NCBI GenBank assembly: GCA_052032125.1
Contig: JBPEXB010000573.1
Location: forward strand, 1 to 41,432
Reading direction: 5' to 3'
From: Acidimicrobiia bacterium
GTDB taxonomy: Bacteria > Actinomycetota > Acidimicrobiia > Spongiisociales > Spongiisociaceae
Length of the DNA stretch: 41,432 nucleotides
Under the pieces are notes generated by a model. The model was not told the origin of the DNA, ran no database searches, and worked only from the letters and a program-made list of their open reading frames with translations. Within the stretch, counting starts at the first letter, position 1. Every line of letters begins with the position of its first letter. Positions 17,627 to 20,883 of the stretch are shown piece by piece. The translations under genes were made by a program, and so were the position numbers.

Positions 17627-19534
17627 ATGGCAACCACGGTTGAGGAAGCGGCAGCACCGGCACCGGCTCCCGACGAGCGACTCGCCTACCGAGGCCCGAT
17701 CCAGAAGCTCCTGACCCGTCCCGAGATCGGCGGTCTCATCGGAGCCGCCTCCATCTGGATCTTCTTCTGGGGCGTCGGCGACGTCTTCGGCACCACGGCC
17801 GGCACGAACAACTACCTCGATGTGAGCGCCGGGCTGGGCATCATGGCGGTGGCGGTCGCCCTCCTGATGATCGGCGGCGAGTTCGACCTGAGCTCGGGCG
17901 CCATGACCGGCGCCACCGGCATGCTGGTCGTGCTCCTGGTCAAGGAACCGGGAGAATTCGGCGGAGCCGGGTTGCCCCTGTCGATCGCCATCCCGCTCAC
18001 GCTGGCGTTCGCACTGGGCGTGGGCTGGGTGAACGGCACCATCGTCGAACGCACCAGGCTCCCGAGCTTCATCGTCACCCTCGGCACCTTCTTCGTGCTG
18101 CGGGGCGCCAAGCTCGGATTCGCCAAGCTCTTCACCGACAAGGTGATCGTCGAGGGTCTCAACGACGCCCCCGACTTCGACTTCTGGGCCAACATCTTCG
18201 GCTCGGTGTGGATTCGCAACGACCACCTCTGGGAGGAGTTCCTCGGGGGCCGCAACGTCGTGTTCGCCGTACTGGCGCTCGCCGGAGGCGTGGCCCTGGT
18301 GCTCGGGCTGCTGCACCTCAGCCTCGTGCGGCGCCCGGAGACCTCCGGTTCCGCCTTGCCGATCTTCGTGCTCGGGCTGGCGGGAACGATCGGTGGCGTC
18401 ATCATGCTGGCCAACTCGGACGGCACCGGTGCCAACTGGACCGGCTCGATCATCGTGGCGCTCGGCGCCCTCGTCGGCGTGTACGGCTACAGCCGCTGGC
18501 GGTTCGAGGGCTCCGGCTCCGATCGCGGATCGCTGTCGTTCGGGGGCGACGTCGGGCGGAGAACTGGCATCGGCATCGGCCTCGTCGTGCTCGGCGTCGT
18601 CGCCGGCCTGGTGCTCGACTCGACGTCGGAGACCGAGATCGGGTTCCTGCTGACGGTGCAAGGGTTGCGGGCGATCCTCTTCGCCGGGCTGGTCATCCTC
18701 GGCGTCATCGCGTTGCTCACCGCTGCCCGCCGGGCGGAGGGCTCGCCAGTGACGACGATGGCGGTGACCGTGCTGACCGCCATCGTGGTGGCGGGGGTGG
18801 GCTTCGTCGTGCAGGCCGAGGCAGCCTCGCGCAAGTTCCGAGCGGAGTTCTTCGCCTGGATGATGCTGGCCGCGTTGCTGCTGTTGATCACCGGGGTCGT
18901 GCGGTACATGTTCACGCAGCGCCGCTACGCCGATGACGCCGGCGACCGACTCGGCCGGCTGCTCTCCACCATCGGCATCGGCCTGGTGGTCGTGGCCGTC
19001 GCCATCCGCTTGCTGTGGTCGACCGCTGCCGAGGTCGAGGCGTCGCCTGCGGTCATCACGTATCGGATCTCCGTGCTGTACTTCTTCCTCTTCGCTGCCG
19101 CGGCCACCTGGGTGCTGACCCGGACGAAGTTCGGGAGCTGGACGTTCGCCGTCGGTGGCAACGCCGACGCGGCGAGACAAGTCGGCGTGCCGGCCGCCAG
19201 GACGAAGACCCAGCTGTTCATGACCGTCTCGGCGGCTGCCTGGCTGGTCGGCCTCCTCGTGGCGTTCCGCCTGAACTCGGTGCAGGCGAACACCGGCGAC
19301 GGGCTGGAGTTCTTCTACATCATCGCCGCCGTGGTAGGCGGCAATCTGCTGACGGGCGGCTACGGCTCGACGTCGGGTGCGGCCATCGGCGCGATCATCA
19401 TGGCGATGTCGTTCCAGGGCATCCCGTTCTCGGGTTGGAACTCCGACTGGCGGTTCCTCTTCGTCGGGGTGATCTTGCTCCTGGCGGTGCTGGTCAACAA
19501 CTACGTACGGGGCCGAGCGGAGGCATCACGATGA
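17627..19534 (+). CDS. CUT2-type sugar ABC transporter permease, unusually long (635 aa)
   Basis: GGAGG RBS 7 nt upstream. The N-terminal part has '[13 protein letters not shown]' and '[15 protein letters not shown]'. The C-terminal part has '[25 protein letters not shown]' and '[15 protein letters not shown]'. About 265 extra hydrophobic residues lie between them. Confidence 0.85.
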
Positions 19535-20883
19535 GCGACACCCCACTGCTCGAGATCAAGAACGTCTCGAAGTACTACGGCAACATCATCGCCCTGCGCG
19601 ACATCACGACGTCGGTCCGGGCGGGGGCCGTCACCTGTGTCCTCGGTGACAACGGGGCAGGCAAGTCGACCTTCATCAAGATCCTGGCCGGCGCCCACCA
19701 GCAGTCCGAGGGGCAGCTGTTCGTCGAGGGTCAAGAGGTGATGTTCGACTCACCACGTGATGCCCTGGCCCGCGGGATCGCCACCGTGTACCAGGACCTG
19801 GCCATGGTGCCGCTGATGTCGGTGTGGAGGAACTTCTTCCTCGGCGCCGAGCCGACGCGTCGCCTCGGTCCGATCAAGGTCATCGACAAGGAGAAGGCGG
19901 CGCTCATCGCCAAGGAGGAGATGGGCAAGATGGGCATCGACATCCGCGACACCGAGCAGTCGGTGGGCACGCTCTCTGGCGGCGAGCGCCAGTCGGTTGC
20001 CATCGCCCGGGCGGCCTACTTCGGCGCCAAGGTGCTGATCCTCGACGAGCCGACCTCGGCGCTCGGGGTCAAGCAGTCCGGCGTCGTGCTCCGCTATATC
20101 GTCGAGGCGCGCAACCGGGGGCTGGGCGTGATCTTCATCACCCACAATCCCAACCATGCCTGGCCGGTCGGTGACCGGTTCATGATCCTCAACCGCGGGC
20201 AGTCGCTCGGCGACTTCGCCAAGGACGAGCTGACGCAGGCCGAACTGACCCAGCTGATGGCGGGCGGCGCCGAGCTGGAGGCGCTCCAGCACGAGCTGAG
20301 CCAGGCAGTGGCGTCGGGTGACGCCGACGAGCACCTGCGCGAGGTGGCCGAAGACGTCGCCGAGGAGCTCCAGGACCTCGGTGAGCGGGTCAGCCGCCGC
20401 ACCGACGCCGGCAGCCTGTATGCCTCGATGGTCGAAGCAGGCCAGGCTCCTTCGACTCGGGTGATCCGCTGTGAGACCGTCCCGGCCGAAGGTGACGTGG
20501 CTGCCGACCTCGGCGTCCAGGCGGGCACTCCCGTCCTGGCGGTCGAGCGAGTTCGCCTGTCGGCCGGCCGGCCGTTCGCACTCCTGCGGAACTGGCTGAC
20601 GGTGGGCACCGGTGGAGAGATCACGACGGCCCAGCTCGAGTCGGGGAGCCTCTACGACCGGCTCGCCTCGCTTGGCGTGGAGCCCGGGCCCGCCTCGTTG
20701 TCCCAGGGAGCCAAGGCTGCCGACCGCTCGGAAGCCGAGGCCCTGTCGTTGAGCGAGGGCGATCCGCTCGTCACCGTCGTGCGGGTGATGCGCGATCGCA
20801 ACGGGCGCATCATCGAGCTCGGCAGGCACCTCTACGACGCCGAGCAGTACACGCTCGAGTCGACGGTCGGTGACTCGGAGTGA
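19531..20883 (+). CDS. ABC transporter ATP-binding protein (single NBD) fused to a C-terminal UTRA domain
   Basis: 450 aa. The ATG overlaps the permease stop (ATGA). NBD motifs: Walker A 'GDNGAGKST', 'LSGGERQ', Walker B 'VLILDEPT', H-loop 'ITHN'. Residues ~295-446 are UTRA-like ('[47 protein letters not shown]', 'GSLYDRL', '[30 protein letters not shown]'). Confidence 0.85.

Follow-up and report, generated by a model that had tools for sequence, protein, structure and literature searches.

A UTRA domain on a sugar-importer ATPase

The stretch analyzed here, called the window in what follows, covers 41,432 nucleotides (nt) of contig JBPEXB010000573.1 (assembly GCA_052032125.1) from an Acidimicrobiia bacterium (its closest relatives likewise point to an uncultured actinobacterium of the Acidimicrobiia type), has a GC content of about 70% and harbors a myo-inositol catabolic (iol) gene cluster with its own ATP-binding cassette (ABC) sugar importer. 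The gene in question is the one encoding the importer ATPase, located between the permease gene and iolC, which is joined in frame to the effector domain of a transcriptional repressor. The open reading frame (ORF) at 19531-20883 (+) encodes a protein of 450 amino acids (aa) without interruption and, on the basis of its translation and of Pfam and NCBIfam matches, consists of an ABC nucleotide-binding domain (NBD), the acidic tail native to that ATPase, an IolR-type linker, named after an inositol repressor, and a UTRA domain. Its start codon ATG (19531-19533) overlaps the stop codon TGA of the permease gene (19532-19534), the two being read from the ATGA at 19531-19534. Translation and coordinates therefore agree with an earlier note, made from the sequence alone, which had described an uninterrupted frame of 450 codons with an ATG overlapping the permease stop.

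The N-terminal part of the protein (aa 1-285, 19531-20385, +) is a single NBD of the CUT2 type, followed by the acidic helical C-terminal tail of its family (aa ~245-285), as established by Pfam, NCBIfam, blastn and the identity to the close relatives P0002 and P0003. The translation contains every NBD motif that had been quoted previously (Walker A GDNGAGKST, Q-loop VYQD, signature LSGGERQ, Walker B VLILDEPT, H-loop ITHN), and ABC_tran (PF00005) was matched at aa 22-176 with E 7.6e-29 and 101.5 bits, the cut-off being 25. Within NCBIfam this part was most similar to the N-terminal halves of the YtfR, AraG, XylG and RbsA models; the YtfR model could be aligned only over positions 1-255 of 492 and reached 185.9 bits vs. 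a cut-off of 850. The tandem NBDs, the chain of ~500 aa and the score above the cut-off that define a CUT2 equivalog were not found, and the ATPase part is a single-NBD relative of that group.

The C-terminal part (aa 286-450, 20386-20880, +) comprises, according to Pfam, matches in the PDB and a structural model, an inter-domain linker and a complete UTRA domain, i.e., a chorismate-lyase fold, of the IolR-like GntR/HutC type. The UTRA profile (PF07702), whose search had been suggested in the earlier note to check the domain, was matched almost over its full length (aa 303-440, profile positions 2-140 of 141) with E 7.9e-33 and 113.7 bits, the gathering score being 23.8. The ABC_tran and UTRA matches are both strong and do not overlap, the protein is a member of both families, and both Pfam and the model show a further folded domain that follows the NBD. 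As the earlier note had also stated, the protein has no winged helix-turn-helix (HTH): neither GntR (PF00392) nor any other HTH family was matched by Pfam even at E <= 1, and a custom hidden Markov model built from the first 100 residues of 80 HutC regulators, when run against all six frames of the 41.4-kb window, found no GntR winged helix at E <= 10. When 11 full-length HutC regulators were compared with the window by tblastn, they matched 20371-20946 only, and did so through their UTRA halves. The protein cannot be a repressor because it lacks a winged-helix DNA-binding domain, and it is not a GntR/HutC regulator, the defining winged helix having been tested for and found absent.

Origin of the inserted segment

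The full-length protein was searched against 5.8 billion protein clusters, and the best 120 of 8000 NBD relatives were listed. The fusion protein was the sole member of its cluster, occurred on one contig, and was the only one among the listed matches to combine ABC and UTRA domains. The next 119 listed matches (P0002-P0120) were 74-92% identical to the query over its first 54-65%, measured 261-296 aa and contained the ABC domain only, with a C-terminal tail of variable length within the family (total ~262-294 aa). P0002 and P0003, both of 289 aa and without UTRA, are 91-92% identical to aa 1-285, and the acidic stretch at aa 245-285 is nearly identical in relatives that have no UTRA. This stretch is the ATPase family's own C-terminal tail, and the description of a new acidic linker of about 50 residues, given in the earlier note, was wrong.

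The point of fusion can be located to the residue. ATPase homology reaches E285 of 289 in the present frame, blastn homology to the related loci L001/L002 ends at position 20386, and the relatives run four codons past the equivalent of E285 and then stop. Homology to regulators begins at R286 (nt 20386) with the linker motif VxRR, and from there the protein aligns to residue 83 onward of 2ra5, a putative regulator of Streptomyces coelicolor, and to residue 95-100 onward of P0121, the closest regulator found; in both, this is where the linker between the two domains follows the winged helix. The fusion junction lies around GGAGCTCCAGGACCTCGGTGAGCGGGTCAGCCGCCGCACC. At the DNA level, window positions 19016-20386 match L001 2074-3478 and the match resumes from window position 20990 and L001 position 3532 onward, with about 575 extra bases (20386-20961) in the window that take the place of the final four codons of the ATPase and of its stop. 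The insert is the 3' two-thirds of an iolR-like GntR/HutC gene, consisting of the linker and the whole UTRA, plus 78 nt of downstream DNA, joined in frame. The latter form a spacer (20884-20961, +) with a GAAGGGA Shine-Dalgarno-like site for iolC, and neither a terminator nor a promoter consensus nor a structured RNA was found in these 78 nt (fold z-score -0.7). Both breakpoints fall on domain boundaries and leave no domain truncated.

The surroundings of the gene in related genomes indicate the direction of the change. The gene order of the window is maintained over ~20 kb in L086/L087 (ATPase 90% identical), L088 and L003, and iolC immediately follows the ATPase gene also in L001/L002 (91-92%), in L089 and in ~25 GTDB Acidimicrobiia genomes; across ~30 related iol clusters the two genes either overlap (ATGA) or lie 13-210 nt apart. 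A UTRA-coding segment downstream of the ATPase gene on the same strand was found in none of the loci of 84 relatives, indicating that the segment is a lineage-specific gain rather than an ancestral feature lost elsewhere. A simple deletion between adjacent ATPase and gntR genes was considered and discarded, since no GntR gene separates the ATPase gene from iolC in the ~30 iol clusters; where a HutC gene does occur nearby, in Luteococcus and Actinotignum loci, it is located upstream or on the other strand. In L065, a locus from the metagenome-assembled genome of an uncultured Acidimicrobiales, an unrelated ORF of 165 aa with an N-terminal hydrophobic helix (L065 8862-9359) occupies the ATPase/iolC junction, which suggests that this junction is a recurrent insertion point.

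An assembly or sequencing artefact could mimic such a gain in two ways, either by the chimeric insertion of ~575 bp or by an indel of a single nucleotide at the junction that conceals the true ATPase stop. The contig apparently stems from a metagenome assembly and is the only one with the fusion protein; a chimera, nonetheless, would need two precise joins 575 bp apart, as synteny resumes exactly after the insert, and neither flanking repeats nor microhomology longer than 13 nt were found around it. The composition of the insert also speaks against a chimera, with a GC content at third codon positions (GC3) of 0.86 vs. a null of 0.90 +/- 0.04 (11th percentile) and a codon score at the 6th percentile, which is within the host range and leaves any signal of foreign origin marginal, even though GC3 drops to 0.72-0.78 right after the junction. 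The stop concealed by an indel could be the out-of-frame TGA that lies exactly at the junction (20382-20384), since a shift of 1 nt just upstream of 20382 would end the ATPase at ~284 aa, near the 287-289 aa of the relatives. In that case, however, the UTRA ORF would have no start or Shine-Dalgarno sequence of its own, its first in-frame ATG (M300) being without a ribosome-binding site, and the homology to ATPases reaches E285 without leaving the present frame. We therefore consider an artefact of either kind improbable.

The segment originates from an IolR-like repressor. When aa 279-450 were searched alone, six proteins were matched, all of them regulators with GntR and UTRA domains, the best being P0121 at 45% identity. 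The P0121 gene is divergent from iolG-like, AP_endonuc_2 (iolE/iolI-like) and aldehyde-dehydrogenase genes, beyond which lies a pfkB gene, and from these surroundings P0121 is taken to be the regulator of an inositol cluster. Among solved structures the closest matches were 2ra5 (4.4e-26) and 2p19, a GntR-family protein of Corynebacterium glutamicum (1.1e-23), followed by NagR/YvoA and DasR, and overall the UTRA part is 38-45% identical to the IolR-like group. In C. glutamicum, inositol genes are repressed by the GntR-type regulator IolR (Klaffl et al., 2013, cited in PMC8634428). The capture of a regulator's sensor domain by a transporter motor, which the earlier note had proposed, is borne out by an intact UTRA in the C-terminal 165 aa, by its GntR/HutC kin from inositol clusters and by its absence from the ATPases of the sampled relatives.

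Integrity and occurrence of the effector domain

The UTRA fold is intact and the anion-binding pocket is retained, as judged from the alignments and a predicted structure. In the AlphaFold model the predicted local distance difference test (pLDDT) score is 82-96 for aa ~310-440, and Foldseek superimposed the model on 2p19 with a template-modeling (TM) score of 0.89 and a root-mean-square deviation of 2.0 A over 146 columns; the first 48 matches were all HutC effector domains, and TM scores to the solved ones were 0.84-0.89. The underlying alignment (A8) held UTRA-only fragments in register and just five homologues of the NBD, because of which the NBD and the inter-domain contacts of the model are not interpretable; the NBD part was modeled poorly (pLDDT 30-55) and shows nothing on the interface between the two domains.

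In NagR, Arg133, Arg135 and the N-terminal end of helix aE5 (Ser165-Ile166-Tyr167) bind the effector's phosphate, and residues including Glu145, Arg211, Glu222 and Tyr228 make contact with its sugar (PMC4333415). In a HMMER alignment to YvoA, residues R340, R342, S373-L374-Y375, R418, E429 and Y435 of the fusion correspond to NagR Arg133, Arg135, Ser165-Ile166-Tyr167, Arg211, Glu222 and Tyr228, respectively, and the protein thus carries both elements of the anion pocket, i.e., the Arg-x-Arg of strand bE2 and the S-I/L-Y at the N-terminus of helix aE5. The specificity position Glu145 of NagR is L352 in the fusion, and a Leu is found here also in other IolR-like proteins. Considering the columns conserved at >=80% in 124 UTRA domains, 33 of 89 are kept in the fusion, as compared to 35 in P0121, 34 in 2ra5 and 30 in 2p19.

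We tentatively read these features as the real capture of an IolR-type sensor that would act as a C-terminal regulatory and dimerizing module of the ATPase, a reading to which we assign slightly less than even confidence. As far as the sequence goes, it is favored by the clean junction at domain boundaries. It is also favored by the tolerance of the ATPase C-terminus toward additions, observed in the variable tails of the family and in P0138, an ATPase of 453 aa with one NBD and 51% identity to the query, which bears C-terminal HEAT repeats (HEAT_2, 4.8e-20). The genuine iol cluster around the gene, its own LacI regulator and the host-like codon usage of the insert count on the same side.

Several observations weigh against this reading, the first being how rarely the architecture occurs. 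Beyond the cluster search, in which the protein stood alone, no second NBD-UTRA protein was present among the best 150 matches of a phmmer search against 1.84 billion representatives, where matches over two stretches were ordinary double-NBD sugar ATPases. Six phmmer matches of odd length (P0130, P0132, P0134, P0137, P0138, and P0226) were inspected as possible second fusions and none has a UTRA: one is an NBD with HEAT repeats, one a permease-NBD fusion, and the others are NBDs with undetected tails. A profile search with seven UTRA domains returned, among its best 120 matches, GntR-UTRA proteins or short UTRA-only fragments and no NBD-UTRA protein, and none was found in GTDB species genomes. 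The JGI metagenome contigs yielded one match, a UTRA segment of 36% identity whose gene context was not examined. On plasmids, no NBD-UTRA was present among the tblastn matches inspected; one of them, H5, with a coverage of 91%, was put aside as a second fusion because the alignment had read through a stop into the next gene. Recurrence of the architecture in independent genomes was thus not observed among the listed matches. NBD-UTRA is not a conserved family, and a singleton offers no evolutionary conservation from which function could be argued. This is in line with the earlier note, whose author was not aware of any characterized NBD-UTRA protein: none appeared among the listed matches of the protein searches, and a 2023 review of the post-translational regulation of transporters includes none and mentions neither UTRA nor GntR.

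The second set of adverse observations concerns the domain itself. At positions where P0121, 2ra5, and 2p19 agree, the fusion has 11 unique changes, P357T, E417V, and R436D among them, as compared to 3, 6, and 7 for those three proteins, respectively; its distance from 2ra5 and 2p19 moreover exceeds that of P0121, and both observations hint modestly at faster change. The codon score of the UTRA part lies at the 6th percentile; together, the unique changes and the codon score are compatible with a UTRA part under relaxed constraint. Finally, the intact ORF says little, as open frames persist by chance at 70% GC.

That the fusion is a singleton and has slightly more unique substitutions than expected at conserved positions of the UTRA counts at the same time for a different explanation, namely that the fusion is real and accidental, with the UTRA a harmless passenger on an ATPase that works as in its relatives. 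Illegitimate recombination or deletion would have destroyed an iolR-like gene beside the ATPase gene, an event that may have been selected since loss of the repressor derepresses inositol genes. The direct succession of ATPase gene and iolC in ~30 related clusters makes the fused state derived and possibly very recent, the ORF at the same junction of L065 indicates that the site tolerates insertions, and a tail that is variable and dispensable should tolerate an appendage. A mere accident is nevertheless difficult to reconcile with two breakpoints placed exactly at domain boundaries so as to leave two complete domains, nor would it be expected to retain all the universal UTRA residues and the ligand-contact set in a confidently modeled domain. 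Its presumed intermediate, the order ATPase, full gntR, iolC, was found in no relative, and since the database of 5.8 billion clusters, in which the fusion protein itself is included, has no donor gene above 45% identity, the segment was not newly copied from any resident gene that has been sampled. We regard the passenger explanation as doubtful, with a considerable chance that nevertheless stays well short of even.

The inositol cluster and the possible gating of uptake

The cluster that hosts the fusion is a genuine myo-inositol catabolic cluster, with iolC, iolG, iolD, and iolB all scoring above their NCBIfam equivalog cut-offs. The 5-dehydro-2-deoxygluconokinase gene iolC (20962-21927, +; TIGR04382, 340 bits, cut-off 300) follows the fusion gene, and is followed in turn by the inositol 2-dehydrogenase gene iolG (21927-22937, +; TIGR04380, 430 bits, cut-off 355); iolD (28599-30440, +; TIGR04377, 834 bits, cut-off 715) and iolB (33037-33861, +; TIGR04378, 227 bits, cut-off 205) lie further along, and the rest of the cluster includes an iolE-like gene, further dehydrogenases, and a DeoC-type aldolase. 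Upstream of the ATPase gene are a periplasmic sugar-binding protein (Peripla_BP_4; 16394-17404, +; Pfam 1.5e-40), whose best named relative is a rhizopine (inositol-derivative) solute-binding protein (NCBIfam rhzpin_SBP, 2.9e-58, below cut-off), and a permease of 635 aa (17627-19534, +) in which Pfam recognizes two BPD_transp_2 stretches. The permease measures 634-646 aa in all Acidimicrobiia relatives, and in the homologous Rhizobium system (L091) the permease is encoded by two genes. The protein of 635 aa is probably a double permease formed by fusion, with a homodimer of the single-NBD ATPase as its partner.

The only DNA-binding regulator found inside the cluster is a LacI-family protein (32040-33040, +, start approximate; Pfam LacI HTH and Peripla_BP_3), and a LacI regulator is found also in the related cluster L089. 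Having its own LacI regulator, the cluster does not depend on the missing HTH. These findings bear on the idea of a tethered decoy, in which the membrane-anchored UTRA would heterodimerize with a free HutC-type regulator and sequester it in dependence on transport, as MalK does with MalT. HutC regulators do dimerize through their UTRA domains, as seen in the NagR and DasR structures, and transporters are known to sequester regulators; the partner, however, is missing, as the window has no GntR regulator, the cluster regulator is of the LacI type, and no paralogue close enough to heterodimerize (above 45% identity) was found in the database that contains the proteins of the contig. A decoy function is accordingly very improbable.

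Some other genes of the window deserve mention. Inside the iol operon, between the epimerase and iolE-like genes, lies a gene for a protein with a Trypsin_2 serine-peptidase domain (23869-24537, +), which is kept in L001, L003, L086, and L088 and is an odd companion of a sugar catabolic operon. A protein of 275 aa with no Pfam match is encoded at 13970-14797 (-), between the FGGY kinase and AP_endonuc_2 genes, and its counterparts at the same position in L086/L087 and L088 (267-269 aa) have no Pfam hit on record; the gene is thus a conserved, uncharacterized member of this inositol-type cluster. Near the beginning of the window (455-4437, -, and 4407-5381, +) lies a nitrogen-sensing neighborhood with a GlnD-like HD/ACT protein and an ammonium transporter; an N6_N4 DNA methylase gene adjoins it in a stretch of lower GC (0.66 vs. 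~0.70), and the starts of the longest ORFs of the ammonium transporter and of the methylase overlap by ~30 nt. At 8024-10383 (+) a gene for a DAO-family FAD oxidoreductase is directly followed by one for AcnX (aconitase X), a pairing that is usual in hydroxyproline-type catabolism and has no relation to the inositol cluster.

Returning to the capture of a regulatory module, UTRA domains are obligate dimerization and effector-binding modules of HutC repressors, and work on NagR and DasR indicates that effector binding re-orients whatever is attached to the N-terminal linker of the domain. Since both BPD_transp_2 stretches of the permease lie on a single chain of 635 aa, each transporter is expected to contain the ATPase twice and, with it, two UTRA domains. 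These would sit beneath the NBD dimer and may dimerize in the manner of the C-terminal regulatory domains of MalK, MetN, and ModC. An anionic metabolite of the pathway, as suggested by the conserved Arg pair, would bind the UTRA and alter the geometry of the retained linker; the linker being joined to the NBD tail, the change in the UTRA dimer could then impede or allow the closing of the NBDs, in analogy to MetNI, ModBC, MalK, OpuA, and CmpC/NrtC. The obvious candidate ligand would be 2-deoxy-5-keto-gluconate 6-phosphate (DKGP), product of the IolC kinase encoded immediately downstream, and inositol itself may also serve. In this way, the state of the catabolic pathway would set uptake at the post-translational level. 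A role of the domain in gating uptake by a metabolite, which the earlier note had put forward, is plausible; the fuller proposal of a functioning importer gated by the UTRA effector domain of an IolR-type repressor, with the signal that controls iol transcription acting directly on uptake, we hold to be rather unlikely.

Ligand-sensing domains fused to NBDs gate the ABC importers MetNI, ModBC, OpuA, and CmpC/NrtC, and comparison with such systems helps to place the fusion. Like MetN (C2/NIL), ModC (TOBE), and MalK, it has an NBD followed by a C-terminal domain, which in those proteins forms dimers, binds a ligand or partner, is present twice per transporter and controls NBD closure. The differences are several: the fold is that of chorismate lyase/UTRA instead of ACT-like or OB/TOBE, the transporter belongs to the BPD_transp_2 sugar family and not to the MalFG/MetI type, the domains of MetN, ModC, and MalK are conserved across large families while that of the fusion is a singleton, and its ligand would be a pathway intermediate, not necessarily the transported substrate as in the trans-inhibition of MetN and ModC. 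The fusion is therefore not in the domain families of MalK, MetN, or ModC, and at most it may work like ABC importers with C-terminal regulatory domains. The closest conceptual precedent is CmpC/NrtC of the cyanobacterial bicarbonate and nitrate importers, in which a ligand-binding domain from another protein class sits on the C-terminus of the NBD and senses an intracellular metabolite. The donor of that domain was a periplasmic solute-binding protein, whereas here it was a transcription factor; moreover, CmpC/NrtC carries the regulatory domain on only one of its two NBDs and has been validated experimentally and structurally.

The two parents of the fusion complete the picture. Its aa 286-450 are homologous to the linker and effector domain of the GntR/HutC repressors (IolR, 2p19, 2ra5, NagR/YvoA, and DasR) and share their phosphate-binding elements Arg-x-Arg and S-L-Y, but the winged helix of the repressors is missing and the N-terminal partner is an ABC ATPase. 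Its aa 1-285 correspond to the single-NBD ATPases of Acidimicrobiia inositol clusters (P0002-P0120, 74-92% identical), which are encoded in the same operon order (solute-binding protein, permease, ATPase, iolC) and, unlike the fusion, have nothing beyond the acidic tail, while the distant relative P0138 has HEAT repeats instead.

Whichever explanation holds, the claim rests on one contig, and its present value is that of a well-defined experiment rather than of an established system. If the UTRA is not functional, the locus would offer a snapshot of the birth of a domain fusion, an in-frame capture at domain boundaries before selection has tested the product. To our knowledge, only a few regulatory folds have been documented on NBDs (TOBE/OB, ACT-like C2, CBS, and solute-binding-protein-like). 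If the domain does gate uptake, the chorismate-lyase/UTRA fold, which is very common as the effector domain of HutC regulators, would join this short list, and capture of a gene fragment at the C-terminus of an NBD would be a one-step route to such regulation. The protein would then represent a compact natural design of a metabolite-gated sugar importer, useful for transporter engineering and biosensors.

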